The translations under genes and the position numbers were made by a program. The notes beneath the pieces were generated by a model. That model worked only from the letters and a program-made list of their open reading frames with translations, searched no databases and was not told where the DNA came from. A stretch of DNA of 64,000 nucleotides from an uncultured Acidobacteriota bacterium (GTDB lineage: Bacteria > Acidobacteriota > Thermoanaerobaculia > Gp7-AA8). The stretch lies in contig CAVWUH010000002.1 in the NCBI GenBank assembly GCA_963758195.1, positions 4,301,560-4,365,559 on the forward strand, given 5' to 3'. Shown piece by piece: positions 934 through 35,375 of the stretch. Position 1 is the stretch's first letter, and every line of letters begins with the position of its first letter.

Positions 934-1012
934 GCAGTTGGCAGTAGGCAGTAGGCAGGAGCAAACACCCGATGTTCTCGCTCCTGCCAATTGCTTACTG
1001 CCAACTGCCTAC
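934..1012. repeat. Intergenic imperfect hairpin with tandem-heptamer arms (GGCAGTA units), apex CAGGAG...CTCCTG
   Basis: gcagttggcagtaggcagtaggcaggagc ... gctcctgccaattgcttactgccaactgc. It fills the gap between the infB stop (929) and the DUF503 start (1018). Confidence 0.8.
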
Positions 1013-1017
1013 TTCGT

Positions 1018-1323
1018 ATGATCGTCGCGGTCGCTCTCTTCGAGCTTCACATCGAGTACGCACAGAGCTTGAAGGACAAGCGGATGGTCGTGAAGTCGCT
1101 GCGCGATCGCCTGCGGCATCACTTTCACGTTTCCGCGAACGAAGTTGCGCTGCACGATGTCCATCAACGCGCGCGGCTGGCGGTATCGCTCGTCGCCGAC
1201 CGCAACGATTCGGCAGACTCGTTGCTGGATAAAATCCAGCAGTACGTGGAGTCGAACAGCAACGCCGTGCTCGCCGGCTGGACGAGCGAGAAGCTGGAGT
1301 TCGACGAAGACGCTTCTCTTTAG
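1018..1323 (+). CDS. DUF503 (YlxP-like) protein
   Basis: MIVAVALFELHIEYAQSLKDKRMVVKSLRDRLRHHFHVSANEV... is the typical DUF503 N-terminus. The position between infB and rbfA is the conserved one. The ATG at 1018 is in frame with track ORF 991..1323. Confidence 0.8.
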   Translation: MIVAVALFELHIEYAQSLKDKRMVVKSLRDRLRHHFHVSANEVALHDVHQRARLAVSLVADRNDSADSLLDKIQQYVESNSNAVLAGWTSEKLEFDEDASL

Positions 1324-1392
1324 CTCGCAGCTGGCAGCTCACAGCTAGCAGGAGGTCGTTCTCCTGACAGCTGTGAGCTGCGAGCTGAGAGC
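1324..1392. repeat. Intergenic hairpin, same class (GCAGCT/CACAGCT units, apex CAGGAG-gtcgtt-CTCCTG)
   Basis: ctcgcagctggcagctcacagctagcaggag gtcgtt ctcctgacagctgtgagctgcgagctgagagc. It occupies essentially the whole DUF503-rbfA spacer and ends 3 nt before the rbfA ATG. Confidence 0.8.
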
Positions 1393-1395
1393 TAT

Positions 1396-1806
1396 ATGAA
1401 AAAGACACGCAGAACGACTCGAGTTGGTGAAAACGTACGCGACGCGCTGGTTCAGGTGCTGCGCAGCGACGTCAAAGGCTTCGATCTCGGCTGGTCATCG
1501 ATCAGCGAGGTCGAGGTGAGCCCTGACCTTCATTACGCGCGCGTGTACATCACGGGCCTGAAGGAAGAAGAGACCAAGGCCACGGTCGAAGAGCTGCGGC
1601 GCCTCGCCGGCGCGGCCCGTCACGCCCTTGGCAAGCGCATTCACCTCCGCTACACCCCCGAGCTCGACTTCCGTTACGACGAGACCGCCATGCGCGCCCT
1701 GCGCGTGGAGACGATTCTTCGCGAAGTCCTTCCTCCGCAGGAAGAGAAGATCGAGAGCGACGAGCAGGACGACGGCGCGGGCGAGGAGCCGTTACCGGCC
1801 AAATAG
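1396..1806 (+). CDS. rbfA: Ribosome-binding factor A
   Basis: RVGENVRDALVQVLRSDVK...ISEVEVSPDLHYARVYI...LRYTPELDFRYDE is an RbfA signature, in conserved operon context. Confidence 0.9.
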   Translation: MKKTRRTTRVGENVRDALVQVLRSDVKGFDLGWSSISEVEVSPDLHYARVYITGLKEEETKATVEELRRLAGAARHALGKRIHLRYTPELDFRYDETAMRALRVETILREVLPPQEEKIESDEQDDGAGEEPLPAK

Positions 1807-1830
1807 CCGGCAGAACCTTGGAGCGAGAGG

Positions 1831-1912
1831 AATCCGGAACGACGCCTCGGATCACCCGCGCGTGCGTTCGGCCTTGTGGCCGTCAACGCTGCCGGCCGTG
1901 CTGGCCGCTCGA
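1831..1912 (+). repeat. Copy A of a ~80-nt dispersed structured repeat (second copy at 42277..42356)
   Basis: ccggaacgacgcctcggatcacccgcgcgtgcgttcggccttgtggccgtcaacgctgccggccgtgctggccgc aligns at roughly 85% identity with 42277..42356 in the same orientation. It contains two small hairpins. Confidence 0.7.
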
Positions 1913-2466
1913 AAGACGTGCTCGCGGTAGAAGCTCAGTTCAGCAATCGAGCACTCGATGTCGGCCAGCGCCCGGTGCACCTCGGGCTTGCGCGGCGGTT
2001 TGATCGTTCCGCCGTACCACTGCGAGACCAGGAGCTTGATCGAGCTGACGTCGATGATGCGATAGTTCAGGAAGTCGTGAACGCGCGGCATGTACCGGGC
2101 GAGGAATCGCTTGTCGTGGCCGACGGAGTTCCCGCACAGCGGCGCCATGCGCGCGAAGCAGTACTTCTTCAAAAACGACAGCGTCTGCCGTTCCGCCTCG
2201 GCCATCGCCACGCCCTCTTTCTGCGCGCGCTCGATCAGTCCGTTCTTGGTGTGCGTATCGCGATTCCAGGCGTCCAGCCGCTTGATGCGCGACGCGCTCT
2301 GCCGGATGGCAAGAACCGGACCCTGGGCGATGATTTCGAGGTCGTAGTTCGTGATGATCGTCGCGATTTCGAACAACCTGTCCCGCGCCGGATCGAGGCC
2401 GGTCATTTCGCAATCGATCCAGACGAGATGCTTGTCGCTCCGCAACTGCTTCTTCGCTCGAGACAT
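1852..2466 (-). CDS. orn: Oligoribonuclease; last ~19 codons and the stop codon lie inside repeat copy A
   Basis: LVWIDCEMTGLDPARDRLFEIATIITN...GNSVGHDKRFLARYMP...HRALADIECSIAELSFYREHVF has the DEDDh exonuclease motifs of Orn. The start is taken at MSRAKKQL (codon 24 of track ORF 1852..2535). Confidence 0.9.
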   Translation of the reverse strand: MSRAKKQLRSDKHLVWIDCEMTGLDPARDRLFEIATIITNYDLEIIAQGPVLAIRQSASRIKRLDAWNRDTHTKNGLIERAQKEGVAMAEAERQTLSFLKKYCFARMAPLCGNSVGHDKRFLARYMPRVHDFLNYRIIDVSSIKLLVSQWYGGTIKPPRKPEVHRALADIECSIAELSFYREHVFRAASTAGSVDGHKAERTRG

Positions 2467-2657
2467 GGAGTCGCATTGTATCGGATCGATCCCTCGCCGA
2501 TACGCCAGGCCGAGCCTTCTTTCGAACGCATTCAAAACTCACGCGTCTCGGGCCACATATCGAAGACATCGACTGTTCGCAGAGCGCAAAATACGGATGT
2601 AATGCGTAATTGACGTCACCGCGGGAGGGGCGTAGCCTTTTGTGCGGAGGTATGCCG

Positions 2658-2903
2658 ATGCGACGATTTGCACTGGTGCTCGCCGTTGTCGCCTTGCTTG
2701 CTGCGCAACCCGCTCATGCCGGCTGCCACCCCGAATCTCAGGACGGTGTCGTCTGCGACACGCATTGCATCACCAATGGTCAACTGGCCGGGTACTGCAA
2801 TGTCAACGTTCCTACTGAGCCGGAGCGCGGCTGTGTTCAACTGTTCGAAGGCTGCGCGAGCATGGACAATGTCCCATGTTGCATGAGCGAAGGTCTGTTC
2901 TAG
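2658..2903 (+). CDS. Small secreted cysteine-rich peptide (signal peptide plus a ~60-aa mature part with 8 Cys)
   Basis: MRRFALVLAVVALLAAQPAHA|GCHPESQDGVVCDTHCITNGQLAGYCNVNVPTEPERGCVQLFEGCASMDNVPCCMSEGLF. GGAGG lies 7 nt upstream of the ATG at 2658. TTGACG(2610)-N17-TAGCCT is a possible promoter. No family recognised. Confidence 0.5.
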   Translation: MRRFALVLAVVALLAAQPAHAGCHPESQDGVVCDTHCITNGQLAGYCNVNVPTEPERGCVQLFEGCASMDNVPCCMSEGLF

Positions 2904-5128
2904 GCATTGCCGCGTTCGGGCTGCTCTGCGCCTGGATGGCTCGCGGCGCGGAGATCGTTTTGCCCGATCCTGCCAAGGGTGAGATCAACGGACGCAGAGC
3001 GGTCTTATTCTGGCCTTCCCTGATGCCGACCACGAAGTCAGGCGAGGGAGCTCTTCTGCCGCCGGACGGATGTGAGGTTCATCTCGTGCCTCACGCCGAC
3101 CTCGATCGCGAATTGCGCTATCCGTGCGGCCGCTGGTTTCAACCGGCCGCGGGCGGATACAACGTTTGGCTGGAGCAGGCCGATCGCATCAGCGTGAGCC
3201 CGAAAGTGATGTGGTTTACGGACGTTGCCTTCAAGGGGCGTGGGATGACGGCGGTGGACATCCTACTCGACGCTGGTCGAGTAGCGTTTCCCGCCGGAAG
3301 CACGATTGCCTCAACCGAGGCCGTCCGCCTGGTTAGCATCGACAGCCATCTTCGCCTCGGAGGGAGGGGACGCATTTTCGATCGTCGCCTGAGCGCCGCA
3401 GATCTCCACGCGCCGGTTCGGATGCCTGCTGGGAAGGTGATCGTCGGGCGTTTTGATCGCGCGACGGGTCAGGCGCTTGCGCTTTCACGACCGTTTAGCG
3501 TTTCGGCCGGAGCAGTGGCCACGGCGTGGCCGAAGCCTCCGGCCACCGGCTCCGATCTCCTTGTCGTCGTCGAAAAGCCTTCTTCGGCACGAAGCGGCGC
3601 GATCGAAGCGAAGCCGGTACAGCTCGAGATCGACGACGGCGCCAATCATCGCGCCCCCGATGTGCTCATTGACGGATTCGAGCGCTTGATCGCGATCTGG
3701 TACTCCATCGACGCACGCGCCGCGACGCTTTCGCTTCGAGCCACGTCGTTCTTTCTCGCGCCGCAAGAGCTCAAGTTACGGGCCGGCACGGTATCGACGT
3801 TGCGCCTGTCCGGCCAGGCGCTTCCCGGCGCGCACGTGTCCATTCTCACCCCCGAGGGTTCCTTGCCGAAAGAATCAACGCTCACGGTGATGCGGGAGTC
3901 GGATCGCGTGGTCGAGCGCCAGATGTCCGTCGCGGTTGGTGTCGTCGACTTGCCGAACCTTCCCGCCGAACGCCTTCGCCTTCGACTCGACGTTGGGCGG
4001 TGGCATTTCGATCGGATTGTCGATCTGAGTTCCGGGGCTGACGCGAACGCCGCATTCGAGCTCAATCCCTTGAGCATTCACGGCCGCGTCTTCTGGGGAG
4101 ACGACCCCATTCCCGCTGAAATCGCGTTCCGCAACGGCGATGATTGGGTGAAAAGCGACGCAGACACCGAGGGCTATTACGAAACCCTGCTTTGGTACGG
4201 GGGGCAATACACAGTCACCGTACAAACGAAGGGCACGAAGGCGCCGCCATTTCTCGAAGCCTTCAAGACCATCGAGACCAGCGGAACCGTCGATTTTAGG
4301 CTGCCGCGCACCGACGTGCGTATGCATGCCATCGATGAAGGTACCGGATTACCGATCGAGGGCGCGATCGCGATGATCTCCAACGTCTGGATCAACGAGA
4401 ATGGTCGCGAAGAAACGATTGCGCAACGTGCGACGAGCGGTCCCGATGGTGAGATCGTTTTTCCTCCCTTGCGTCCCGGTGACGTTCACGTAGAGTTGCG
4501 CGCGAAGGGATACGAGAACTCCGAGCCTCTCGATTTTCGAAGCGAGAAGAAGGAATCGCGTCGCTTCGACGTCGCGCTTCGATCCATCCACGCTTCGGCG
4601 CGGTTGCGTGTCGTTCTCGCTGATGGTCGACCGGCGGCAGGTGCCGATGTATGGGCGTTCGCCATTGAACCTGGACTGCGTCTCGTCTGGCAGGGGTCGA
4701 CCAACGAACAGGGCGGCGTGGAGCTTCCGGAGCGTACCAGGCGAGGCCGGCTGCTCATTCGGCATCGAGAAGCAGCAAGTACGATCCGCGAGAGTCCGCC
4801 GGCAGACGCGGAATGGACGCTTGATTCTCCCGCTGCTCCGTTGGTGATCGAGGCGAAGAAGGTTTCGGAAGGGAAAGCAGGCAGCATGCGCATGGCGTTG
4901 TGGCTCGACGGCGTAAAGCTCACTGGCGTTCCTCTCGCCTTTGCCACATGGGGAGCTGTTGCCGCGGATGCGAGAGGTTTCTGGATCGCGCGAAACCTTC
5001 CGTCGCGACCGGTGCGCGTGCTCGCCTGCGCAAGAGGCGAACTGCTCGACCAGGCCGCGTTCGATGCTCTGGCTACGAATGTCTCGTACCCGTGGCCGGG
5101 TGCGGTCCTGCTTCAGGCGGCCGAGTAG
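2876..5128 (+). CDS. Large secreted hypothetical protein (750 aa)
   Basis: Long intact ORF with a signal-like N-terminus, MLHERRSVLGIAAFGLLCAWMARGA|E. Its start overlaps the peptide gene by 28 nt. No catalytic motif or family recognised. Confidence 0.6.
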   Translation: MLHERRSVLGIAAFGLLCAWMARGAEIVLPDPAKGEINGRRAVLFWPSLMPTTKSGEGALLPPDGCEVHLVPHADLDRELRYPCGRWFQPAAGGYNVWLEQADRISVSPKVMWFTDVAFKGRGMTAVDILLDAGRVAFPAGSTIASTEAVRLVSIDSHLRLGGRGRIFDRRLSAADLHAPVRMPAGKVIVGRFDRATGQALALSRPFSVSAGAVATAWPKPPATGSDLLVVVEKPSSARSGAIEAKPVQLEIDDGANHRAPDVLIDGFERLIAIWYSIDARAATLSLRATSFFLAPQELKLRAGTVSTLRLSGQALPGAHVSILTPEGSLPKESTLTVMRESDRVVERQMSVAVGVVDLPNLPAERLRLRLDVGRWHFDRIVDLSSGADANAAFELNPLSIHGRVFWGDDPIPAEIAFRNGDDWVKSDADTEGYYETLLWYGGQYTVTVQTKGTKAPPFLEAFKTIETSGTVDFRLPRTDVRMHAIDEGTGLPIEGAIAMISNVWINENGREETIAQRATSGPDGEIVFPPLRPGDVHVELRAKGYENSEPLDFRSEKKESRRFDVALRSIHASARLRVVLADGRPAAGADVWAFAIEPGLRLVWQGSTNEQGGVELPERTRRGRLLIRHREAASTIRESPPADAEWTLDSPAAPLVIEAKKVSEGKAGSMRMALWLDGVKLTGVPLAFATWGAVAADARGFWIARNLPSRPVRVLACARGELLDQAAFDALATNVSYPWPGAVLLQAAE

Positions 5129-5213
5129 TTTCGAACGCATTCAAAAGTTTACTTGACCTAGCCCGATTCTCGATCTACCTTGGGGTTGAACACGTTCAAA
5201 AGGAGATCGAGCC

Positions 5214-6191
5214 ATGAAGATCATCATCCCCGGCGGTTCAGGACACCTCGGAACTTTGCTCACGCGCGCCTTTCGGCAGAAGGGGCACGACGTCATCGTG
5301 CTCACGCGCGATCGTCATCAGGCTGGCGTGCTCTGGGACGGGCGAACGCTTGGTCCGTGGGCGACGCTGTTCGATGGGGCCGACGCGGTGATCAATCTGG
5401 CGGGGCGGAGCGTCGATTGCCGTTACAGCGCACGGAATCGCGAGGAGATTCTTCGGTCGCGGGTGGAGTCGACGCGGATGGTCGGCGAAGCGATTGCGGC
5501 GTGTACGCATCCGCCCGAGGTCTGGCTGCAGATGAGCACGGCCACGATCTATGCGCATCGGTTCGACGGAAACAACGACGAGTACACCGGGATCATCGGC
5601 GGAGACGAGCCAGGTGTCCCGAAGTCGTGGCGATTCAGCATCGACGTGGCGAAGGCGTGGGAGGCGGCGATGGACGACGTTCCGACGCCGGCAACGCGCA
5701 AGGTGAAGCTGCGCACGGCGATGGTGATGAGCGCCGCGCCTGGAGGTCCGTTCCAGGTGCTGCGCCGCCAGACGCGCCTCGGGTTCGGGCGATTCGGCGA
5801 CGGAAAGCAGTTCATGTCCTGGATTCACGAGCGCGATTTCGTGCGCGTGATCGAGTGGCTGATTGCGCACGATCGCGTCGACGGCATCGTGAACATCGCC
5901 GCGCCCCATCCGTTGCCGAATGACGAGTTCATGGAGGCGATCCGGCACGCGGAGAAGATCGCGGTTCATGTCCCGTTGCCGAAGTGGATGATCGAGGTCG
6001 GTATGTGGCTCTTGCGCACCGAGTCAGAACTCGCGCTGAAGAGCCGGCGCGTCGTTCCGCGCCGCCTGCGCGAGCTCGGGTTTCCGTTCGAATTTCCGCG
6101 ATGGCCGGCAGCGGCGCGCGATCTCTGTGCCGGAGCGGGCGTCGCGGACATTGCACCGCGGCGCGAGAGCCGGCTCGCGGGTCAGTATTGA
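5214..6191 (+). CDS. YfcH-like NAD-dependent epimerase family protein (Rossmann domain plus DUF1731-type C-terminus)
   Basis: MKIIIPGGSGHLGTLL (GxxGxxG), ...VINLAGRSVDCRYSARNREEILRSRVESTR...GDGKQFMSWIHERDF. SD AAAGGAG upstream. Possible promoter TTGACC(5153)-N17-TACCTT. Confidence 0.8.
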   Translation: MKIIIPGGSGHLGTLLTRAFRQKGHDVIVLTRDRHQAGVLWDGRTLGPWATLFDGADAVINLAGRSVDCRYSARNREEILRSRVESTRMVGEAIAACTHPPEVWLQMSTATIYAHRFDGNNDEYTGIIGGDEPGVPKSWRFSIDVAKAWEAAMDDVPTPATRKVKLRTAMVMSAAPGGPFQVLRRQTRLGFGRFGDGKQFMSWIHERDFVRVIEWLIAHDRVDGIVNIAAPHPLPNDEFMEAIRHAEKIAVHVPLPKWMIEVGMWLLRTESELALKSRRVVPRRLRELGFPFEFPRWPAAARDLCAGAGVADIAPRRESRLAGQY

Positions 6192-6274
6192 ATGGACGGT
6201 ATGCCGTGTATTCTTTCGACGACTGGCGTATTTGTGAATTCGGCAGTTGTGAGCTCGGCAGCGAGGAGAAGGAA

Positions 6275-6955
6275 TTGACCGTCACCGGCCGGCGAGAGAC
6301 CGCGAAAGCGGAAGAGACGCGCGCGCGCATTCTCGACGCGGCCCTGGCTCTGTTCCAGCGCAAGGGTTTCGCGGAGGCGACGATGCGCGACGTCGCCTCG
6401 GAAGCGGGCGTCGCGACCGGCGCGGCTTATTACTACTACCGCTCGAAGGAAGAGCTGGTGATGGCTTTCTACCTCCGCTCCGAGGAGGAAGCGCGCGAAG
6501 AATTCGCGAAGGTCATCGCCTCGACGAAGGATCTGAAGAAACGCATCCGCGGGATCATCGACGCGAAGTTTGCGCAGTTCGCCGGACACCGCAGCCTTCT
6601 CACGGCGCTGCTCAAGGCGGGAGTCGATCCGCGCGATTCACTCTCGCCGTTCGGTCCGGAAACGAGCGAAGTGCGCGAGGACCACATCTCCTGGTATGCG
6701 CGCGCGCTCGAAGGCGCGGACATCACCATCCCCAAAGACCTCGCCCCGCATTTGCCGCGTTTGCTCTGGCTCTACCACATGGGTCTGATCTATTTCTGGA
6801 TCACCGACGAGTCGCCGCGCCAACGCCGCACGCAACGCCTCGTTGACGCCACGCTCGATCTCATGATCCAACTGCTCCGCGTGTCCTCGCTGCCTCTCAT
6901 GGGACCGCTCCGCAAGCGAGTGTTGAAGGTGCTACGGGCCGTGGAAGAAGAATAG
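6275..6955 (+). CDS. TetR/AcrR family transcriptional regulator
   Basis: ETRARILDAALALFQRKGFAEATMRDVASEAGVATGAAYYYYRSKEEL is a TetR HTH. A TTG start at 6275 preceded by GAGGAGAAGGA is proposed, in frame with track ORF 5984..6955. Confidence 0.8.
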   Translation: MTVTGRRETAKAEETRARILDAALALFQRKGFAEATMRDVASEAGVATGAAYYYYRSKEELVMAFYLRSEEEAREEFAKVIASTKDLKKRIRGIIDAKFAQFAGHRSLLTALLKAGVDPRDSLSPFGPETSEVREDHISWYARALEGADITIPKDLAPHLPRLLWLYHMGLIYFWITDESPRQRRTQRLVDATLDLMIQLLRVSSLPLMGPLRKRVLKVLRAVEEE

Positions 6956-7033
6956 ATCGCAGATCGCAGATCGCGGATCGCAGGGCAGCGCCGCGAAGAG
7001 ATCCTGCGATCTGCAAACTGCGATCTGCGAACT
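6955..7033. repeat. Intergenic hairpin with GATCGCA heptamer arms
   Basis: gatcgcagatcgcagatcgcggatcgcagg ... cctgcgatctgcaaactgcgatctgcgaac, between the TetR stop and the truB start. Confidence 0.8.
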
Positions 7034-7046
7034 CGGCTCGTCGGAT

Positions 7047-7988
7047 ATGCTTCGCCCAATGATCGCTCCAACGAAAAGCATCGACGGCGTGTTGCTCGTC
7101 GACAAGAAATCCGGCATCACCTCTCATGACGTGGTCGAGGTGTTCCGCCGTCGCGGCAAAGTGAAGAAGGCCGGTCACACCGGCACCCTCGATCCCATGG
7201 CCACCGGGCTGCTCGTGCTTTGCGTCGGAAAGGCGACGCGTCTGCAGGCCTACCTCATGGGAATGGAGAAGACGTACGAGGGAACGATCCAGTTCGGCTG
7301 GGCCACCGACTCCTACGATGCCACCGGGGTTCCGGCGGGCGAGCCGATCGAGCGAAAGGTCTCGCACATTCACTTCGCGCCCTATCTCGCGCAATTCACC
7401 GGCGCCATCGAGCAGATGCCGCCGTCGTTCTCGGCGAAGAAAATCGACGGCGTGCGGGCGTACGAGCTCGCGCGCAAGGGCGAAGAGGTCAAGCTGACGC
7501 CGAAGCGGGTGACGGTTTACGAGTTCACGATCCTCGAAGTGCAAGGCTCGACCGCGAAGTTTCGCGTCCGCTCTTCCGCCGGCACGTACATGCGCTCGCT
7601 CGCTCACGACCTCGGCCAGGCCATCGGTATCCCCGCGCATCTCAAGGAGCTGCGTCGAACGGCCATCGGCAACTTCAAAGTGGAAGAGGCGATTGCCTTC
7701 GATGTCATGGCCGAGGGAACGCCGGAGACGATCCTCAAGCCGCCGTATTATCAAAGCCTCTCGGACATCGATCTTCCGCTCGAGAAGTTACGTATCGACT
7801 GGGCGCAGCAGGGAAAGATGATGAACGGTCAGGGAGTGATCATGGTGCCCAGCGTCCGCGTGCAGAAAGGCGATCTGCTCGCGCTCGGCAATCCGCACGA
7901 TCAGCTCGTGATCATCGGCGAAGTCGTCAATGTGCTGCGCGATGGCGGGCCGGTGGAAGTGAAGCCGAAGGTCGTGCTGGCGGGGTAG
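7047..7988 (+). CDS. truB: tRNA pseudouridine(55) synthase
   Basis: DGVLLVDKKSGITSHDVVEVFRR...KAGHTGTLDPMATGLLVLCVGKATRL is the TruB catalytic Asp motif. Confidence 0.9.
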   Translation: MLRPMIAPTKSIDGVLLVDKKSGITSHDVVEVFRRRGKVKKAGHTGTLDPMATGLLVLCVGKATRLQAYLMGMEKTYEGTIQFGWATDSYDATGVPAGEPIERKVSHIHFAPYLAQFTGAIEQMPPSFSAKKIDGVRAYELARKGEEVKLTPKRVTVYEFTILEVQGSTAKFRVRSSAGTYMRSLAHDLGQAIGIPAHLKELRRTAIGNFKVEEAIAFDVMAEGTPETILKPPYYQSLSDIDLPLEKLRIDWAQQGKMMNGQGVIMVPSVRVQKGDLLALGNPHDQLVIIGEVVNVLRDGGPVEVKPKVVLAG

Positions 7989-7998
7989 GGCTCGACAC

Positions 7999-9780: not shown

Positions 9781-9894
9781 CGGCGCGAATCATACCGTCG
9801 GGATTGTTTTTCGGACTTCCCGCTGTTACCCTGACGCGCTCTGGAATGCCAGACGTGTATCGATTTACTGGTAACTGACTAAGGAGACAGGATT

Positions 9895-10164: not shown

Positions 10165-10175
10165 GCGACCTGATC

Positions 10176-10212
10176 CCGGGGCGGGCCTCGCGCCCGCCCC
10201 ACGTGTTTTCAG
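10176..10212 (+). terminator. rpsO-distal GC hairpin plus short T tract (terminator/attenuator ahead of pnp)
   Basis: ccggggcgggc ctcgc gcccgcccc acgtgttttc. Confidence 0.5.
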
Positions 10213-12752: not shown

Positions 12753-12853
12753 GGGTTCACGCGGAGACGCGGAGACGCGGAGACGCGGAGACGCGGAGAC
12801 GCGGAGAGGAGGCAATTCTCTCCTCTCTGCTTTCTCCGCCTCTCCGCGTGAAA
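12753..12853. repeat. GTTCACGCGGAGAC palindromic repeat, copy a; left arm carries ~5 tandem GCGGAGAC octamers
   Basis: gggttcacgcggagac(gcggagac)x4 gcggagaggag gcaattc tctcctctctgctttctccgcctctccgcgtgaaac. Confidence 0.85.
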
Positions 12854-12874
12854 CGTTAGTTTTCGTTCGAGCTC

Positions 12875-17451: not shown

Positions 17452-17490
17452 TTTCTGGCAGCTGCCTTGAGTTTCTGGCAGCTGCCTTGA
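17452..17490. repeat. Two tandem 20-bp units, each containing the palindrome GGCAGCTGCC, in a divergent promoter region
   Basis: tttctggcagctgccttga g tttctggcagctgccttga. Confidence 0.8.
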
Positions 17491-19483: not shown

Positions 19484-19536
19484 ATTCGTGTTGTCGGTTG
19501 TCAGTTGTCGGTTGTCCGCGATGAACGGATTGCGCG

Positions 19537-27136: not shown

Positions 27137-27170
27137 GCGCGCGATTGTAGTCGGCGAGGCAAGAGAATCC

Positions 27171-27251
27171 GGGTTCACGCGGAGACGCGGAGGACGCGGA
27201 GAGGAGATCTCCAACTTTCTCTCCGCGCTCTCCGCGTCTCCGCGTGAAATC
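27171..27251. repeat. GTTCACGCGGAGAC palindromic repeat, copy b
   Basis: ggttcacgcggagacgcggaggacgcggagaggag ... ctctccgcgctctccgcgtctccgcgtgaaatcc. Confidence 0.85.
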
Positions 27252-27299
27252 CTGGTTGTGCTTTCCCTGGCTCTCCATTTGCTGCATTAGACTTCCCAT

Positions 27300-30285
27300 A
27301 TGCTCGCCGAGCTTCTGCTGAAGTGGCCGCTCTTCCGCCAGCTCCGTGGTGACGACGATGCCGCGACGAGCGATCGCACGCGCGCGTTGCGTCCGCGAAA
27401 CGAAGACGCGGAAGTGACGCGGTCGATCTGCCCGTACTGCGCCGTCGGCTGTGGTCAACTCGTTTACCATCGCGACGGAAGGGTCGTGAGCATCGAGGGC
27501 GATCCGGAGTCGCCGATCTCGCGCGGGCATCTTTGTCCGAAGGGCGCGGCCAGCTATGAGCTCGTCACGCATCCGGCGCGGGCGACGAAGATGAAGTACC
27601 GCGCGCCGCGCTCGCGGCAATGGGTCGATCTCGATCTCGATCGCGCGATGGACATGGTCGCCGAGCGCGTGTGGGCGACGCGCGAGCGGACGTTCGACGA
27701 GCAGCACATGCACACGACGGGCGTCGCGCACCTCGGCGGCGCTACGCTCGACGTCGAAGAGAACTACCTCATCAAGAAACTCTTCACCGCCGGATTGGGG
27801 ATGGTCTGCCTGAGCAATCAGGCGCGGATATGACACAGCTCCACGGTGCCCGGTCTGGGCACCTCCTTCGGGCGCGGCGGCGCCACGACCGCTCAGCAGG
27901 ATCTCGCCAACTCGGATGCGATTCTGATCATGGGCTCGTCGATGGCCGAGAACCATCCCGTCGGATTCCAGTGGGTCATCGAGGCGCGCGAGAAGAACGG
28001 CGCGAAGGTCATTCACGTCGATCCGCGCTTCACCCGCACATCGGCGATGGCTGATTACTGGCTGCCGCTCCGCGCCGGGAGCGATCTCGTATTTCTCGGC
28101 GCGATGATTCGCTACGTCCTCGAGGAGGAGCGCTTCTTCCGCGAGTACGTGGTGCGCTACACGAACGCCGCGGTGCTCGTGCGCGAAGACTTCCGTGACA
28201 CCGAGGAGCTCGGCGGCGTGTTCTCGGGACCGGAGACGTGGCTCGATCCCGACTCGCCGAAGGGCGCGAACCGACACCGGACATCGTGGCGAAGGGCAGG
28301 GAGCGCGGCGAACACGCATCACGATCCGGAACGCGACGAAAGCCTCCAGCATCCGCGCTGCGTCTTTCAGGTGATGCGTCGCCACTTCGCGCGCTACACG
28401 CCGGAGCTCGTCGAGCAAACCTGCGGCGTTCCGAAGGAGCGGTTCCTCGAAATTGCGCGACGTCTTCACGAGCGCTTCCGGACCGGAGAAGACCGCGGCG
28501 ATCTGCTACGCGGTCGGCTGGACGCAGCACTCCAGCGGCGTGCAGATCATTCGCGCCGCTTCGATCCTTCAACTCCTCCTCGGCAACATCGGACGTCCCG
28601 GCGGCGGAATCCTGGCGTTGCGCGGACACGCTTCGATTCAGGGATCGACCGACATACCGACGCTCTACGACATCCTTCCCGGCTACCTGCCGATGCCGAC
28701 GTCACTCGAGCTCACGCTCGATTCGTATCTGAAGAAGAACTCGGCGGACAAGGGCTGGTGGAACAACATCGACAAGTACATCGTGTCACTGCTGAAGGCG
28801 TACTACGGCGATGCGGCGACGCGCGAGAATGAATTCGGCTACGCGTGGCTGCCGCGCCTCATCGGCGATCATTCGTACTTCGGCTACTGGCTGGACATGG
28901 CCGACGGCAAGCTCGAAGGGCTGTTCGTGATGGGACAGAACCCGGCCGTCGGCTCGCCGAACGGAAAGCTCGAGCGCGCGGCACTGCGCAAGTTGAAATG
29001 GCTGGTCGTGCGCGATCTCGTGGAGACCGAGACCGCCGCGTTTTGGAGATCGAGGCTCCGGACGAGATCGATACCGAAGTGTTCTTCTTTCCCGCGGCGT
29101 CGCACGTGGAGAAGGACGGCACGTTCACGAACACGCAGCGACTCCTGCAATGGCGAGACAAAGCGGTCGAGCCTCCTGGCGATGCGCGCAGCGAGCTGCA
29201 GTTCATGGTCGCGCTGGGACGCAAGCTCAAGGCGATGGCGACGGACGCGCCGCGCGATGCCGCGCTTCGCGCGTTGACGTGGGATTACACGGAGGAAGAT
29301 GCGGAGGAAGTGCTGCGGGAGATTCATGGCGGCACGGCCACTGAGTCGCCAGCGCTGCGGAACTTCACGGATCTCAAGAGCGATGGCTCGACTTCATGCG
29401 GTTGCTGGATCTACTCCGGCGTCTTCGATGGCGTGAACAAAGCTAACGGTCGCGCGGCGAAGGGTCGCTACGGACATGGTTGGGGTTATGCGTGGCCGAT
29501 GGATCGGCGCATCCTCTACAACCGCGCTTCCGCGCGTCCCGATGGATCGCCGTGGAGCGAGCGCAAGGAGCTGGTCTGGTGGGATGACGAGAAGCGTGAA
29601 TGGACCGGGCACGATGTCGCCGACTTCACGCGCACGAAAGCGCCCGACTATCGTCCCGATGAAGCGAAACAAGGCGACGATGCGATTCGCGGCGATGCGC
29701 CGTTCATCATGCATCCCGATGGGTGGGCTGGCTCTGGGTTCCGTCGGGCTTGAAAGACGGACCGCTGCCAACGCACTACGAGCCGCTCGAGTCGAACATT
29801 CGCAACCCGCTGTACGCGCAACAGGAAAATCCGTATGCGCTGAAGCTCGAGCGCGACGACAATGTCTACGCGTCATCGCCCGATCCGCGGTTCCCCTACG
29901 TCCTGACGACCTATCGGCTCACCGAACATCACACCGCGGGCGGCATGTCGCGGACGCTCTCGCATCTCGCGGAGCTGCAGCCGGAGCTCTTCGCCGAGAT
30001 CTCGCCGGAGCTCGCCGCGGAAGCGGGCGTCGCCAACGGCGAGATGCGTCACGATCTCCACCGCCCGCGCCACGATTCGACGCGCGCGCACTCGTCACCT
30101 CGCGCATGCCGTCGCTCACGATCGACGGCAAGCGCGTGCATCAGGTCGGCCTGCCATTCCATTGGGGCGGCCGCGGCCTCGTCACCGGCGACGTCGTCAA
30201 CGATCTCCTCGCGATCTCCGAGGAACCGAACGTGAGGATCTTCGAATCGAAGGGGCTGACGTGCAATCTAAGGCGTATAGGCTGA
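27300..30285 (+). CDS. fdhA: Formate dehydrogenase catalytic (molybdopterin) subunit, selenocysteine-containing; about 4 apparent frameshifts in the 3' two-thirds
   Basis: SICPYCAVGCGQLVYH (4Fe-4S), ...MVCLSNQARI-TGA-HSSTVPGLGTSFGRGGATT, where the in-frame TGA 27831..27833 aligns with the Sec of FdnG/FdoG-type enzymes. Downstream peptides continue in frames 0>1>0>2>1 (...YAVGWTQHSSGVQIIRAASILQLLLGNIGRPGGGILALRGHASIQG...; ...FFPAASHVEKDGTFTNTQR...; ...VLTTYRLTEHHTAGGMSR...; ...GKRVHQVGLPFHWG). Confidence 0.9.
27831..27870 (+). promoter_or_regulatory. UGA(Sec) codon plus putative bacterial SECIS hairpin
   Basis: tga cacagctccac GGTGCCC ggtct GGGCACC. A perfect 7-bp stem starts 11 nt after the UGA. 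The GGUCU apical loop is reminiscent of the E. coli fdhF SECIS loop. Confidence 0.6.
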
Positions 30286-30287
30286 TC

Positions 30288-30340
30288 GGCGCACAGGCGC
30301 ACAGCGGAATTGGATCTGTGAGCCTGTGCGCCTGTGCGCC
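30288..30340. repeat. Intra-operon hairpin with GCGCACAG octamer arms (between fdhA and the 4Fe-4S subunit)
   Basis: ggcgcacaggcgcacag cggaattggatctgtgag cctgtgcgcctgtgcgcc. Confidence 0.8.
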
Positions 30341-30349
30341 CGTGAAACC

Positions 30350-31141
30350 ATGAGCAAAACCTCGACGACCACCGGCTTCTTCACCGACTCCACGCTCTGC
30401 ATCGGATGCAAGGCGTGCGAGGTCGCGTGCAAGGAATGGAACGACGTGCCGAGCGACGGTTTCGATTTCTCCGGCAAGTCGTACGACAACACGCTGGGGC
30501 TCGGGCACTCGACGTGGCGGCACGTGAAGTTCGTCGAAGGGGAGACGCAGATCGGATCGGGCGGCAACGCGCCGGATCTGATGACCTGGCAGTTCTCGTC
30601 CGACGTCTGCAAACACTGCGAGAACGCCGGCTGCCTCGAAGCGTGTCCGACCGGCTCGATCATCCGCACGGAATTCGGCGGCGTCTACGTGCAGCCCGAC
30701 ATCTGCAACGGCTGCGGCTATTGCGTCGTCACCTGCCCATTCGGCGTCATCGATCGTCGTCCGGACGACGGTCGAGCGTTCAAATGCACGTTCTGCTACG
30801 ACCGTCAGAAAGCGGGCGAGGTTCCCGCGTGCGCGAAGGCGTGTCCCACGCAATCGATTCTCTTCGGCGATCTGGAAGAGCTCGAACGCGCCGCCGACGC
30901 GCGCATCGCTACGCTGCATTCGGCGGGGATGACGGACGCGAATCTCTACAATCCGAAGGAGACTAGCGTCGGCGGGACGCACGCGTTCTTTCTGCTGCGC
31001 GGCGATCCGCGAAACTACAACCTGCCGCTCGATCCCGTGTTCCCGGTGACGCTGCTGAAGCCGGCGTGGACCGAGGCCGCCGCGGCGGCGGCGGTAATCT
31101 TCGGCGGCGCGCTGCTGGCCTTCGCATTCCATCGCAAATGA
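30350..31141 (+). CDS. Formate dehydrogenase iron-sulfur subunit (4x 4Fe-4S ferredoxin type, C-terminal TM anchor)
   Basis: CIGCKACEVACKEWN...CKHCENAGCLEACPTG...CNGCGYCVVTCPFG...CTFCYDRQKAGEVPACAKACP. C-terminal helix AAAAAAVIFGGALLAFAF. Confidence 0.9.
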   Translation: MSKTSTTTGFFTDSTLCIGCKACEVACKEWNDVPSDGFDFSGKSYDNTLGLGHSTWRHVKFVEGETQIGSGGNAPDLMTWQFSSDVCKHCENAGCLEACPTGSIIRTEFGGVYVQPDICNGCGYCVVTCPFGVIDRRPDDGRAFKCTFCYDRQKAGEVPACAKACPTQSILFGDLEELERAADARIATLHSAGMTDANLYNPKETSVGGTHAFFLLRGDPRNYNLPLDPVFPVTLLKPAWTEAAAAAAVIFGGALLAFAFHRK

Positions 31142-31965
31142 GCTCTTACTACGACCTCCCGCTGCACAAGCCTCCCGTCTGGACGTGGGAAGTGCCGACG
31201 TATTTTTTCGTCGGAGGCGCGGCTGGTGCGGCCGCGGTGCTCGGCGCAGTGGCGCAACTGGCAGGCGCGGATGAGGCTCTCGTGCGCGATGCACGCTGGA
31301 TCGCCGCCGCGGGCTCCGCGCTTTCCGCGCCGCTGCTCATCGCCGACCTCGGGCGTCCGGAGCGTTTTCTCAACATGCTGCGCGTGTTCAAACTGCAGTC
31401 GCCGATGTCCGTCGGCGCCTGGACCGTCGCCGCGTTCGGCACGGCGTCGAGCGCATCGGCGTTCGCGACTCTCGTGCGTCGCAATACCAATCTGCCGGTG
31501 AAGATCATCGAGAACGCTTCGGCGACGGTCGCGGCAGCGACGGGTCTCGTGATGGCAACGTACACCGGCGTGCTCCTCGGTGCGACCGCGATTCCGGTCT
31601 GGAAGAAACACGTGCGTCTGTTGCCCGTCCACTTCGGCGCCTCGGCACTCGGCTCCGCGGTCTCGCTGCTCGAGCTCCGCGGCCACCGCCACGCCGCGCT
31701 CCAATCCCTCGGTCTCGGCGCCGCGATCTTCGAGACCTTCGCGAACCATGCCATCGAAAGCGGCGACGACCGCGTCTCCGCGCCGCTGCGCACAACCATC
31801 ACGCGCCTCGGCGGCGCGCTCTCGGGACCGATCCCTCTCGCGCTCCGCCTCCTCGGCGCCCGCAAAGGCGCCGCCGTCTCGACACTCCTCGGCTCCCTCC
31901 TCACACGCTTCGCGTGGGTCGAAGCAGGAAAGATCAGCGCGAAGGACGTGACGGTCGCGCTGTAG
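31138..31965 (+). CDS. NrfD/PsrC-like integral membrane subunit
   Basis: ATGA overlap with the upstream gene. MSSYYDLPLHKPPVWTWEVPTYFFVGGAAGAA is a typical NrfD-family start, followed by ~8 hydrophobic helices. Confidence 0.7.
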   Translation: MSSYYDLPLHKPPVWTWEVPTYFFVGGAAGAAAVLGAVAQLAGADEALVRDARWIAAAGSALSAPLLIADLGRPERFLNMLRVFKLQSPMSVGAWTVAAFGTASSASAFATLVRRNTNLPVKIIENASATVAAATGLVMATYTGVLLGATAIPVWKKHVRLLPVHFGASALGSAVSLLELRGHRHAALQSLGLGAAIFETFANHAIESGDDRVSAPLRTTITRLGGALSGPIPLALRLLGARKGAAVSTLLGSLLTRFAWVEAGKISAKDVTVAL

Positions 31966-32160
31966 TCAGCTTGCAGCTCGCCGCTCGCAGCTCGCAGGAA
32001 AACCGAGTGGACCGCTGCCGTCTCGGCGGCTGGGGCGGCGTCGTCTCGACGCCCGCCCGTGAGCGGCGAGACGCCGCTCACCCAGCCGGCGAGACGCCAG
32101 CGGTCCACCCACGACAACCCAAGTGTAGACGTGCTCCTGCGAGCTGCCAGCTGAGAGCTC
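31966..32160. repeat. Composite nested palindrome filling the convergent intergenic region
   Basis: Outer arms tcagcttgcagctcgccgctcgcagctcgcagga / ctcctgcgagctgccagctgagagctc enclose an inner 27-bp inverted repeat (gtggaccgctgccgtctcggcggctgg / ccagccggcgagacgccagcggtccac). That repeat in turn encloses two further hairpins, gtgagcggc gagac gccgctcac and gggcggcgtcg..gacgcccgccc. Confidence 0.8.
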
Positions 32161-32634
32161 CTACACGCAGTACGTGCCGGACATGCGATCGGGTAGCGAG
32201 CGACGCGAAGGGAGAGCCGCGAGGGCGAAGCCGAGGCCGCAGGTGAGGAGCGAGAGGTAGACGGCGGACCAGCGGAGCGAGGCGTCGCGCAGCGAGATCG
32301 CGTGCGGTTCCGCGTCGCGCACCACGCGCACGTCGAAGATCGCGCCGCCGATGGTCTTGCCCCAGAGCATCCACGTGCCGACGAAGTAGTAATACGAGAG
32401 GACGACGAGGAACCCCGCCAGCGCGCCGGTCGTCATCCATGAAGAGGGCTGTGGCAGCAGCGGAGAGAGTGCGAGAGCGACCGCCGCGAAGAGGGAGAGG
32501 TCCGTCAGCAGCGCCATCAGTCTTCGGAAGCGAGACGCCTCCTCGGTTGCCGAAGCTGTCGTCGCGCCTGGGAGCGCAACGTCTCCGATTCCGAGCGGCA
32601 CCGTTTCGAGCTCGACTTCGTCAAAGCGCATCAC
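32161..32634 (-). CDS. RDD family membrane protein
   Basis: RRLMALLTDLSLFAAV...YYYFVGTWMLWGKTIGGAIFDVRVV...LRWSAVYLSLLTCGLGF is an RDD-domain pattern. GTG/ATG start. Confidence 0.65.
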   Translation of the reverse strand: MMRFDEVELETVPLGIGDVALPGATTASATEEASRFRRLMALLTDLSLFAAVALALSPLLPQPSSWMTTGALAGFLVVLSYYYFVGTWMLWGKTIGGAIFDVRVVRDAEPHAISLRDASLRWSAVYLSLLTCGLGFALAALPSRRSLPDRMSGTYCV

Positions 32635-32643
32635 ACCCTCCCG

Positions 32644-32714
32644 TTCAGCTCTCAGCTTTCAGCTCTCAGCTAGCAGGCGTCTCCTGAGAGCTGCGAGCTG
32701 AGAGCTGTCAGCTA
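32644..32714. repeat. Intergenic hairpin with CAGCTCT heptamer arms
   Basis: ttcagctctcagctttcagctctcagctagcagg cgtct cctgagagctgcgagctgagagctgtcagc. Confidence 0.8.
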
Positions 32715-34850
32715 ACTCGCTTGTCGTGTCGGCAGATATTTTACGTAAATCTTGTAGAGAAGGTCTTTCGGTTCGCCGTCGTAGCGCAAGGCCAGATCGC
32801 GGCTGCGTTTGGCGAGCTCGTCGTCGGGTGTGACTTTGAGCACTTCGTCGAACTCGTGAACCGCGTCCTGTACGCGCTCTTCCTGAAGCGCCTGCGCGCC
32901 CATGTTGAAGTGCGCATCGACGATGAGGCGGCTCACGTTGAGGTTCGACGGATCCTGATCGAGCAGTGACTGCAGATTGGAAATGGCCTCCGTGTACTTG
33001 CGCTCGGCGAAGAGCGCCTTGGCCGCGTCGAGCTTCGCTACCTGCTGCTGCGCGGCGTCGTACTGCGCCTTCATATCGGGCGGCAGCGGCTTTACGCGCA
33101 TCGCCTGTTCGAGAGCCGCTTTCGCGGTCGCGAAATCATGGGCGTCGAGCGCCGTGCGGGCGGCGGCGAGGCGTTGATCGTAGTACAGCGCGGCAGGGAC
33201 GCCGTCGATCATCTGCGCCGACGTCGACTTCTTGATTTGCAGCTCGGAGATCATCACCAGCGCGCGATCGTGTTCCGGGTCGGTGGCCTTGATGTCCTGC
33301 AACAGCGCGATGGCCTCGTCGTACTTTCCGCGGCTGGCCAGCGTCGATGCGCGGGCGAAGGCCTGCTGCGCCGCCGCGGGATCGGCCTCGGGCTTGTTCA
33401 TGAAACGATTCCACACGAACCAGCCGCCTCCTCCGAGAACCAGAAGCACCACGATCGTGAGGATGAGACCCATCGGCAGTTTGCGCTCGCTCTTCGCCTT
33501 GGGAGGTGTGGCCGCTGCTTTCTTTCCGGAGGACGCGCCAAGAGTTACGGAGCCGGGATCCGGAGGAACCAGTGTGGTTTCATAGGCACCGGACTCCGAC
33601 TCCTCGAAGAAATCGATTTCGAGCTTGTCGTCGCTGACCGAGGGCGGGTTGTACGGATTCGACCGCGCCGCGGCACCGCCTTCGACCACCGTCTCGCCGA
33701 GGCGGTCCAGATGTTCCTTCGCCGCGAAGTTGGACGGATCGAGACGGAGCACTTCCGACAGATCGCTATGCGCCTTGGCCGTATCGCCGCGCTCGAATGC
33801 CGCGATTCCGCGCGCGAGGAGCGACTCCACCTTCTCCTCCGCTTCGCGGCGCTTCGCCTTGGCCCGCTCGATGCGCTCCGATGCCTGATCGTTCGTCACA
33901 TCGATGAGAAAAATGCGCGACCAGAGATCGATCGCCTGCTGATGATCGCCCGCTGCCGCGGCGCGATCGCCATCGGCGAGGTACTGCTCGATCTTCTTCT
34001 GGTCTTCGGCGTTCGTCACGACCGACGCGGTTGCGAAATCGAAGTCGCCACTGACCGGCTCCTTGCTGACGGACGGGGTCTCGAAGGAGAAGCCACCGAA
34101 CGGCGAAGAATCCGCGGGCGTGGCGGCGGCGGGACTGTCGAACGAAAAACTCTGCGCCGGCGAATCGAACGAGAAATTCGCAAACGAAGGCTGCGCCGGT
34201 TTCTCCTCCTCGAACGCGAAGCCGAAGTCCATGGCCTGGGCTGTCGAGCGTCCGGCGCCCGAAGGAGGCGCGGGGCGATCGTCGACGACGAACGACGGCG
34301 CGCGGGGAGGAGGCGCCCCATCGCGGGACGACACGGCTCGGACCAGACGGGCGACGTCGGGATGCGTCGGATCGAGTGCCCGCGCTTTTTCGAGCTCGGT
34401 CTTCGCCGCGGTCGTATTTCCGGACGCGATCAACTGCTCGCACTTGCGAACGAACTGCTCGACGAACGGCGCCGCTTCCATCTTCTCGCGCGCTTCATCG
34501 CCGAGAATGCGCGCGTCGTCGTTGAGAAGATCGTCGGTCAGCACGTCCGTCGTGATCTGGATCGCGCGCTGGAAATCGCGTTCCGCCATCGCCTGGCGCG
34601 CCAGCTCCATCGCCCCGCGATCATCGCTCTGGAGCAGAGTATCGACGTCGATCGGCAGCGACGGATTGTGGATCTTGTCCAGCAGCTTCCGCGCCGGCTC
34701 GAAAGTAGGATCCATCTGCAGGATGAGCGTGCAACCGGCCGCGACCTCATCACGCCGTCCCTGATGGTACAGAGCCAGAGTCTGTTGAAACGTCGAAACG
34801 ACGCGATCTTTCACGGCCCCGGCAAGGGAAGGATTTCCTGGGTAAGTCAT
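32712..34850 (-). CDS. TPR-repeat protein with one TM helix and a central low-complexity region
   Basis: 712-aa intact ORF. TPR-like helical repeats at both ends, TM LPMGLILTIVVLLVLGGGGWFVW, and a Pro/Ala/Ser/Phe-rich middle. Confidence 0.7.
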   Translation of the reverse strand: MTYPGNPSLAGAVKDRVVSTFQQTLALYHQGRRDEVAAGCTLILQMDPTFEPARKLLDKIHNPSLPIDVDTLLQSDDRGAMELARQAMAERDFQRAIQITTDVLTDDLLNDDARILGDEAREKMEAAPFVEQFVRKCEQLIASGNTTAAKTELEKARALDPTHPDVARLVRAVSSRDGAPPPRAPSFVVDDRPAPPSGAGRSTAQAMDFGFAFEEEKPAQPSFANFSFDSPAQSFSFDSPAAATPADSSPFGGFSFETPSVSKEPVSGDFDFATASVVTNAEDQKKIEQYLADGDRAAAAGDHQQAIDLWSRIFLIDVTNDQASERIERAKAKRREAEEKVESLLARGIAAFERGDTAKAHSDLSEVLRLDPSNFAAKEHLDRLGETVVEGGAAARSNPYNPPSVSDDKLEIDFFEESESGAYETTLVPPDPGSVTLGASSGKKAAATPPKAKSERKLPMGLILTIVVLLVLGGGGWFVWNRFMNKPEADPAAAQQAFARASTLASRGKYDEAIALLQDIKATDPEHDRALVMISELQIKKSTSAQMIDGVPAALYYDQRLAAARTALDAHDFATAKAALEQAMRVKPLPPDMKAQYDAAQQQVAKLDAAKALFAERKYTEAISNLQSLLDQDPSNLNVSRLIVDAHFNMGAQALQEERVQDAVHEFDEVLKVTPDDELAKRSRDLALRYDGEPKDLLYKIYVKYLPTRQAS

Positions 34851-34916
34851 GTGCGATGGACTCCGATGGTCGCGCGATTATAGCTATACTCCGCGCGCAG
34901 AAAGGATCGCATCCAG

Positions 34917-35291
34917 ATGGATTACATCGCCACCGACGGAGCCCCGAAAGCGATCGGCCCGTACTCCCAAGCCGTGAAAGCGAACGGCCTCGTCTACACC
35001 TCCGGACAAATTTCCCTCGATCCCGCCACCGGGAACCTGGTCGAAGGTGATTTCGCCGCGCAGGCCCATCGCGTATTCCGAAACCTCGATGCAGTTCTGG
35101 GGGAAGCGGGAAGCAGCTTCAGCAACGTGCTCAAAGCGACGGTCTACGTCACCGACCTCGCCAACTTCCAAACGCTCAACTCGATCTACGCCGAGTACTT
35201 CGGCGAGCACAAACCGGCCCGTACGACGGTCGAAGTGAAGGGGCTACCGAAGGGCGCCGCACTCGAGATTGATCTGGTTGCGTTGGCTTGA
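34917..35291 (+). CDS. ridA: RidA family (YjgF/TdcF) reactive-intermediate deaminase
   Basis: APKAIGPYSQAVKANGLVYTSGQISLDPATGNLV...KATVYVTDLANFQTLNSIYAEYFG...PARTTVEVKGLPKGAALEIDLVA. Confidence 0.9.
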   Translation: MDYIATDGAPKAIGPYSQAVKANGLVYTSGQISLDPATGNLVEGDFAAQAHRVFRNLDAVLGEAGSSFSNVLKATVYVTDLANFQTLNSIYAEYFGEHKPARTTVEVKGLPKGAALEIDLVALA

Positions 35292-35292
35292 C

Positions 35293-35375
35293 GTAGCTCA
35301 CAGCTCTCAGCGCTCAGCTGGCAGGAGCGGAGCCGTTCTCCTGTGAGCTGCGAGCTGACAGCCGCGAGCTGACAC
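35293..35375. repeat. Intergenic hairpin (CAGCTCT/GAGCTG units, apex CAGGAG...CTCCTG) abutting the next start codon
   Basis: gtagctcacagctctcagcgctcagctggcaggag cggagccgtt ctcctgtgagctgcgagctgacagccgcgagctgacac ATG. Confidence 0.8.

Follow-up and report, generated by a model that had tools for sequence, protein, structure and literature searches.

The intergenic gaps of a 64,000-nucleotide stretch of DNA from an uncultured soil Acidobacteriota bacterium of the class Thermoanaerobaculia (the window) contain long hairpins with arms built from tandem 7- to 8-nucleotide words, and these hairpins sit inside essential operons. This raises the question of what the elements are and how they can be tolerated at such positions. 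According to our analysis they are probably small noncoding palindromic repeat elements of several unrelated word families, which behave like repetitive extragenic palindromic (REP) sequences or transposable elements of the miniature inverted-repeat type (MITEs). They would have been inserted or templated into tiny gaps, after which the arms slip, and they would be tolerated because the stem keeps stop and start codons together.

Nine long hairpins of this type and one unpaired array were found in the window. The original prediction had listed eight sites, all of which are present at the positions it gave, but two hairpins (12755–12860 and 27171–27251) were missing from its list. A scored, gapless palindrome search was applied to the window and, as a control, to 10 dinucleotide shuffles of it. 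Hairpins with scores of at least 16 numbered 7 in the window and 0 in the shuffles, and at a score of at least 12 the window contained 12 compared with a shuffle mean of 1.7. RNAfold predicted one long hairpin each, with energies of −42 to −62 kcal/mol, at 934–1012, 1321–1394, 6954–7033, 30288–30344, 32643–32714, and 35293–35375. For 31966–32160 a composite structure of −144 kcal/mol was predicted, in which outer arms of AGCT words surround a nested palindrome. In a blind run of Tandem Repeats Finder on the window, both arms of every hairpin showed a period of 7 or 8. The elements are 53–106 nucleotides long, and the G+C content of the window is 63–67%. An independent short-read contig (L001) agrees with hairpins 1 and 2 (931–1013 and 1321–1394) at every base, and these two are therefore not assembly artifacts. 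Rfam yielded no match at gathering score and only chance matches to microRNA precursors at permissive thresholds; tRNA and tmRNA genes were looked for and none was found.

The presence of hairpins at orthologous gaps was compared in relatives, the closest of which by infB are metagenome-assembled genomes (MAGs) of Thermoanaerobaculia (Acidobacteriota) with 82–89% amino acid identity. At infB|DUF503, 10 of 28 relatives have a gap of 1–9 nucleotides, a plain GC hairpin occupies the gap in 6, and another 10 carry repeat-armed hairpins that together use six different words. The word of the window, GCAGTAG, occurs again at this junction in two of them (L129 and L147) with different numbers of units. 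The junction DUF503|rbfA consists of an ATGA overlap or a gap of at most 3 nucleotides in 12 of 18 relatives, whereas the window has 72 nucleotides, all of them hairpin, and two further relatives (L131 and L138) have hairpins with still other words. At fdhA|fdhB, most Acidobacteriota show an ATGA overlap or a few nucleotides, and the window holds a hairpin of the word GGCGCACA. Several Verrucomicrobiota carry independent repeat-armed hairpins at the same junction, one of them (L365) with a perfect stem of 46 bp. The presence/absence differences sought by the comparison of orthologous gaps were thus found at all three junctions, and the hairpins are therefore not conserved regulators of the flanking genes. 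In three Verrucomicrobiota (L352, L354, and L376) fdhA|fdhB contains a different palindrome of ∼150–200 nucleotides (GGGGAGCGCACGCGTTTCGCGTG...CACGCGAGACGCGTGCGCTCCCC) without tandem arms, apparently a member of another dispersed family.

Copies are also dispersed within and between genomes, in both orientations. A pattern scan located members of the AGCT family mainly in Acidobacteriota. In one Acidobacteriota MAG (L088, 3590–5660), AGCT-word hairpins occupy all five gaps of infA|rpmJ|rpsM|rpsK|rpsD|rpoA. The non-repeat loops of all five are homologous to one another (CAGGAGAC...GGGYGKYGGG...CCTG); three of them share one orientation and the remaining two are reversed, and independent local origin therefore does not explain this set. 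Strong termination in the gaps of this ribosomal protein operon would be lethal. In other MAGs, rplC and atpG are bordered by AGCT-word hairpins, and in soil metagenome contigs the arms of hairpins 2 and 3 (6954–7033) are joined to unrelated flanks. Expansion of a single arm is directly visible at 12759–12807, where six perfect ACGCGGAG units oppose 2–3 complementary ones (12759–12849).

To compare lineages, one detector was used for all sequence sets. The density of repeat-armed hairpins was 7.8 per 100 kb in the window and 7.0 per 100 kb in 417 kb around infB from 31 Thermoanaerobaculia relatives, where they make up 62% of all long hairpins. It was 0.4–0.8 per 100 kb in other Acidobacteriota, Verrucomicrobiota, and other phyla and 0 in Actinomycetota, showing a strong enrichment in one lineage. 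The words are highly diverse (CAGAGTCT, GGTGTCG, CGATGAA, TCAGGGC, GATAGGACN, GGTTGCTG, GAAGGAT, TCGGGAG, and others) and form ∼16 clusters among 39 hairpins. Clustering of words at ≤1 mismatch was dropped as evidence of homology, being too permissive for 7-mers (∼14 chance links expected among 741 pairs).

The stems in the window start 0–2 nucleotides past the stop codon and end about 2–9 nucleotides short of the next start codon. At 27 junctions, the median distances were 2 nucleotides from stop to stem and 6 nucleotides from stem to start, so that the two codons adjoin each other at the stem base. Runs of at least 4 T were sought within 15 nucleotides 3′ of every hairpin on both strands and none was found, in agreement with the original prediction. 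Translation of an upstream gene is able to unfold an inhibitory structure that covers the start codon of the next gene. At the junctions described here, copies would be inserted, or templated, into tiny intergenic gaps, and their arms would later change by slippage in steps of one 7- to 8-nucleotide unit. Transcription would continue through the stem because there is no U tract, and the near-perfect stem from stop codon to start codon would hold both codons side by side. A ribosome terminating on the upstream gene would melt the base of the stem and expose the downstream start. Translational coupling would in this way be preserved across the inserted stem and would permit its survival between previously coupled genes. 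Judging from the stop-stem-start geometry, such coupling is the most plausible reason for the tolerated insertions. Cleavage, 3′ protection, and altered expression ratios are possible at the RNA level. We infer read-through and coupling in the RNA, as well as the mechanism of spread and any effect on mRNA processing or stability. Coverage of the region was 0 in one soil metatranscriptome, which holds 4% of the words.

Other explanations have to be weighed against dispersal of small palindromic elements. Very stable GC-rich stems directly 3′ of stop codons, 8 of 27 of them between convergent genes, would suit factor-independent terminators or attenuators of the U-tract-less type that has been proposed for some high-GC bacteria. 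However, intrinsic terminators are defined by a GC-rich stem and a subsequent U tract where a transcription unit ends, and here no hairpin is followed by a T run on either strand and the sites are internal to operons. They separate genes that need cotranscription, namely rpsM-rpsK-rpsD-rpoA in L088 and infB-DUF503-rbfA and fdhA-fdhB in the window. In addition, the same junctions are free of hairpins in close relatives, and one copy lies in a divergent 5′ region. Termination is therefore very improbable as an explanation, and the doubt of the original prediction that these are simple terminators is well supported. Local origin alone, in which a short palindrome or terminator at each site would have grown into the hairpin by slippage in 7- to 8-nucleotide steps and quasipalindrome correction (template switching), no site being copied to another, also seems improbable, if less so. 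It would account for the very high word diversity and for the one-arm expansion at 12759–12807, and the plain GC hairpins at infB|DUF503 of some relatives are possible starting material. Among the long simple-sequence repeats of bacteria, moreover, heptamers are the most abundant, which has been ascribed to slippage of the polymerase (cited in PMC4679880 and PMC4692102). What speaks against local origin is that a perfect 72-nucleotide hairpin replaces a gap of 0–3 nucleotides at DUF503|rbfA with no intermediates, that one word recurs in five neighboring gaps of L088 together with non-repeat loops that are homologous and occur in both orientations, and that an exact 19-mer including the non-repeat head TTCAC is common to several phyla.

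A more serious rival is selection on the RNA, with stems kept as a kind of operon punctuation, i.e. as sites for double-strand-specific RNases, barriers to 3′-exonucleases, or devices that set cistron ratios; the structure would matter and the sequence would be free to turn over. Of 28 relatives, 16 have some hairpin at infB|DUF503, and the sequences of these hairpins are unrelated; fdhA|fdhB hairpins arose independently in two phyla. Pairing survives changes on both arms, as in hairpin 1 (GCAGTTG/CAACTGC versus GCAGTAG/CTACTGC), and words covary in the arms around the GxxExxY genes described below. The hairpins lie within highly expressed operons and are depleted from divergent gaps (1 of 27 compared with 19% of all gaps, by crude gene calls). 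Nevertheless, infB|DUF503 is too short to accommodate a structure in 10 of 28 close relatives, and at DUF503|rbfA the genes still overlap or nearly overlap in 12 of 18, which means that a local function is not required. Moreover, a divergent promoter region also holds a copy, one array is unpaired, and intrastrand template switching could maintain pairing without selection. We consider selected RNA elements rather unlikely as the general explanation. Several observations weigh against dispersal as well. No transposase or other mobilizing enzyme was found among the scanned open reading frames (ORFs) of the window, and no target-site duplication or fixed terminus could be defined: the extent of the palindromes varies, and where filled and empty gaps were compared (infB|DUF503 and DUF503|rbfA) the element ends fall on the word itself or on a palindromic TA, where duplication is indistinguishable from palindrome extension. 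The high word diversity fits a local de novo origin of some copies no less than it fits many families. Furthermore, two junctions have each gained hairpins repeatedly and independently across lineages and phyla, and combined with the compensatory or concerted changes this could signal selection for a hairpin there rather than neutrality. Dispersal of small palindromic elements nevertheless remains the probable explanation. A self-propagating REP-like family with arms growing by slippage had been among the options of the original prediction, and it is the one favored by the comparative data, i.e. presence or absence at gaps, occurrence in nonhomologous gaps, both orientations, and one-arm expansion.

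The hairpins of the window (annotated without strand) comprise at least five unrelated word families, and the single family of the original prediction proved too simple; those with octamer words belong to a wider type linked to GxxExxY genes. Hairpin 1 (931–1013), with the word GCAGTAG and the apex GGCAGGAGC/GCTCCTGCC, fills the gap from the infB stop codon (927–929) to the DUF503 ATG (1018). Hairpin 2 (1321–1394) belongs to the AGCT family (CAGCTNN), contains the TAG stop codon of DUF503 within its stem, and ends 1 nucleotide 5′ of the rbfA ATG (1396). Between the stop codon of a TetR-family gene (6953–6955) and the truB ATG (7047), hairpin 3 (6954–7033) is built from GATCGCA. The two octamer hairpins are both derived from the word ACGCGGAG and have a common head CGGGTTCAC and a common tail GTGAAA. 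Hairpin 4 (12755–12860), upstream of an ArsR-family gene (12875), reads GGGTTCAC(GCGGAGAC)×6, apex GGAGAGGAG, 2–3 complementary units, GTGAAA, and Tandem Repeats Finder reported its arm as (ACGCGGAG)×6.1 with 100% identity. Hairpin 5 (27171–27251), the only one in a divergent region, reads GGGTTCAC(GCGGAGNC)n...GTGAAA and lies between fdhD (minus strand) and fdhA (plus strand, ATG 27300). Hairpin 6 (30288–30344) carries the 8-nucleotide word GGCGCACA between the fdhA stop codon (30283–30285) and the fdhB ATG (30350).

The remaining three hairpins belong to the AGCT family. Hairpin 7 (31966–32160), the only one between convergent genes, connects the stop codons of nrfD (31963–31965) and an RDD gene (32161–32163). 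Its outer arms (31966–32003 and 32128–32160) enclose an unrelated palindrome of 100 nucleotides (32007–32108), a nested insertion within the loop; only sporadic 14-mers of this palindrome are common to other loci, and no family was found for it. Hairpin 8 (32643–32714) lies between a TPR gene (stop codon 32712–32714) and the start of the RDD gene (32634), both on the minus strand. Hairpin 9 (35293–35375), with bulges and the apex GGCAGGAG/CTCCTGTG, extends from the ridA stop codon (35289–35291) to the ATG of an M10 peptidase gene (35376). The four AGCT hairpins share more than the word, namely ...CTCCTG-NGAGCTG-CGAGCTG-AGAGCT. Four hairpins had been predicted to share the apex CAGGAG...CTCCTG; both sides are exact in three (934, 1321, and 35293), and two more (31966 and 32643) have one side only. 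A role of the AGGAG apex as a Shine-Dalgarno sequence was rejected, as the apex differs between families and sits 30–40 nucleotides from the start codon. The unpaired array (19490–19516, plus strand; GTTGTC(G/A)×3.9) lies between convergent phosphoglucomutase and beta-lactamase-like genes. It has no complementary partner, and its word forms a complete hairpin at DUF503|rbfA of the relative L131.

The gene context was confirmed by Pfam, including the orders infB/DUF503/rbfA and fdhA/4Fe-4S subunit of the original prediction: infB, DUF503, and rbfA; TetR and truB; fdhD divergent from fdhA, fdhB (4Fe-4S), and nrfD, which converge on RDD and TPR; and ridA with the M10 peptidase gene. Compared with an otherwise identical short-read contig with an intact ORF, infB (1–875) has 7 single-base insertions and ∼30 substitutions, and the frame of fdhA (27300–30285) changes at least five times. 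These differences reflect either an indel-rich assembly, probably a long-read MAG, or two pseudogenes, the latter being unlikely for infB. In fdhA, an element resembling SECIS_3 (27828–27889; 36 bits, E = 1e-4, below gathering score) begins at an in-frame TGA (27831–27833), which is consistent with a selenocysteine-containing formate dehydrogenase. Elsewhere in the window, a stretch at the 3′ end of an RNase T-like gene (1822–1905) reached 10–40 times the depth of the neighboring contig in two soil metagenomes, where many contigs diverge on both sides; it is multicopy or widely conserved. The 750-residue protein encoded at 2876–5128 was considered as polynucleotide phosphorylase, and this was rejected; it is a CarboxypepD_reg protein that yielded no relatives. 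A perfect 20-nucleotide direct repeat (TTTCTGGCAGCTGCCTTGAG×2; 17452–17490), with the palindrome GGCAGCTGCC in each copy, is located where a GFO/IDH/MocA oxidoreductase gene and an ORF of no assigned function diverge and resembles a pair of operator sites. In the regions 43163–60615 and 60714–62323, an ORF of 3581 residues contains 16 copies of a 261-nucleotide repeat and is followed by two further large repeat proteins (330-nucleotide repeat, five copies). Next come a pair of genes in which Pfam identified phage tail collar domains and a third, similarly sized ORF outside the scan.

The octamer hairpins 4 and 5 carry head, word, and tail in the form TTCAC(GCGGAGNC)n...GTGAA, as found in the arms that flank GxxExxY (PD-(D/E)XK) genes. 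The 19-mer TTCACGCGGAGACGCGGAG, which spans the non-repeat head and the word, is present in exact form in more than 115 genome loci of many phyla (Thermoanaerobaculia, Sphingomonadales, Verrucomicrobiota, Gemmatimonadota, Planctomycetota, and others) and in 47 viral contigs. In most cases its mirror image stands at the other end of a loop of 10 to more than 400 nucleotides, and the longest loops encode a GxxExxY protein (TIGR04256/PF13366, PD-(D/E)XK nuclease fold). Such flanking arms were detected at 64 of 73 GxxExxY loci (metagenome loci were sampled by protein only), and in 43 of 55 loci the dominant word variant is equal on both arms, compared with 13.3 expected. At least 29 GxxExxY loci lie between fabD and fabG of Alphaproteobacteria. 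There the 5′ arm begins at the fabD stop codon, and the 3′ arm codes for the tail of the GxxExxY protein, ...SASPRLRV*. At this junction (L243, L248, L284, L304, and L439–L467) the word of the arms varies by lineage (GCGGAG, GCGAAG, GCAAAG, and GCAGAG), and the two sides stay complementary. Within the window, a TTCAC head, tandem GCRRAGNC octamers, and a mirror arm ending in GTGAA are combined only at 12755–12860 and 27171–27251. No GxxExxY ORF was detected in the window by phmmer, and the loops of the hairpins measure 11–33 nucleotides. Hairpins 4 and 5 are ORF-less versions of the GxxExxY cassette arms.

Longer loops of 150–250 nucleotides in TTCAC-armed elements (L422, L200, L228, and L231) often hold other known-looking short repeats, for example ...GTCATCCCGGCGAAAGCCGGGA..., and such loops seem to be where additional elements insert. 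In the heptamer families, ORFs between pairs of same-word hairpins 400–1100 nucleotides apart were considered as cargo and rejected, being ordinary genes (atpG, rplC, and serine acetyltransferase; translations judged by eye). Their loops of 150–450 nucleotides contained no credible ORFs and only other nested repeats. A broader and more tentative proposal is that the repeat-armed palindromes might be the cargo-less form of an undescribed mobile cassette, consisting of a tandem-word stem around a small selfish gene (in the octamer type the GxxExxY nuclease). In many bacterial phyla, both the cassettes and their empty stems would settle where one gene of an operon stops and the next one starts. 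The function would lie in the stem, which would loop out the cargo from the host mRNA, keep the flanking genes coupled, and possibly be recognized by the nuclease. We regard this proposal as possible but less likely than not.

Very stable stems of 25–35 bp apparently sit between essential coupled genes, in one case in every gap of a ribosomal protein operon. If this is true, the lineages that carry them routinely read through such stems and initiate beside them, and they would offer a natural test bed for translational coupling, ribosome helicase activity, and mRNA processing in little-studied soil phyla. The elements are a concrete case of slippage and palindromy jointly building structured DNA and RNA. 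For the widespread, uncharacterized GxxExxY family, a conserved genomic context of stem-bounded cassettes, e.g. in fabD-fabG, hints at its role. In practical terms, the repeats break short-read assemblies, create spurious ORFs, and can serve as strain-typing markers for Acidobacteriota.

The elements were finally compared with known systems. In 23S rRNA intervening sequences a long stem bounds a small ORF within a longer transcript, and excision by RNase III is documented. The octamer arms around GxxExxY genes in fabD-fabG likewise form a stem around a small ORF, but host transcript and cargo are different, and RNase III excision is documented for the rRNA sequences only. Integron attC sites were rejected because the flanking genes are housekeeping genes (infB, rbfA, and ribosomal protein genes) and no core motif (RYYYAAC/GTTRRRY) is present at the stem bases. 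Comparison with MITEs revealed no parent insertion sequence. REP sequences and REPINs, which are mobilized by RAYT transposases and assumed to influence mRNA stability as RNA hairpins (PMC3116915 and PMC3733652), are also short extragenic palindromes that lie mostly downstream of genes, occur in both orientations, and vary between strains. The dispersal is the same, with nine copies in 36 kb of the window and ∼7 per 100 kb in relatives. However, REPs measure 20–40 bp, carry a GTAG or CGTC tag, form one to few families per genome, and have arms without tandem repeats, whereas the present elements are longer and, apart from GTAG within the word GCAGTAG, have neither tag. No RAYT (IS200/IS605-type Y1 transposase) domain was found among the scanned ORFs of the window. 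The short tandemly repeated repetitive (STRR) heptamers of cyanobacteria and the TAACTGA repeats of Beggiatoaceae (PMC4679880) are similarly abundant, intergenic, and lineage-specific and often end at start codons, but they are mostly direct one-strand arrays and not paired as palindromes.

Searches of the literature returned no description of multi-word repeat-armed palindromes in Acidobacteriota or of the arms of GxxExxY genes. The original prediction had known of no description of the architecture at all, which is not quite right, since convergent pairs of GGGAATC heptamer arrays have been reported in Xanthomonas (70–75 pairs per genome), each pair making up an inverted repeat that can fold into a stem-loop (Rehm et al. 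2015, PMC4692102). As in Xanthomonas, two convergent arrays of the same word, with a period of 7 or 8 in both arms, share one intergenic region. The Xanthomonas pairs also lie near the end of the upstream ORF, mostly between co-directional genes, and vary in length between strains. They use one G-rich word per genome, which was studied for G-quadruplex formation, whereas the lineage of the window has many unrelated words without G tracts per genome; none of GCAGTAG, CAGCTNN, GATCGCA, GGCGCACA, and ACGCGGAG contains GGG. Also unlike the Xanthomonas pairs, the stems of the window fill the whole gap from stop to start, their loops are conserved within families, and one type is tied to a protein-coding cassette. 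The feature is thus real, its nearest description is the convergent heptamer pairs of Xanthomonas, and its link to a protein-coding cassette is unexpected.

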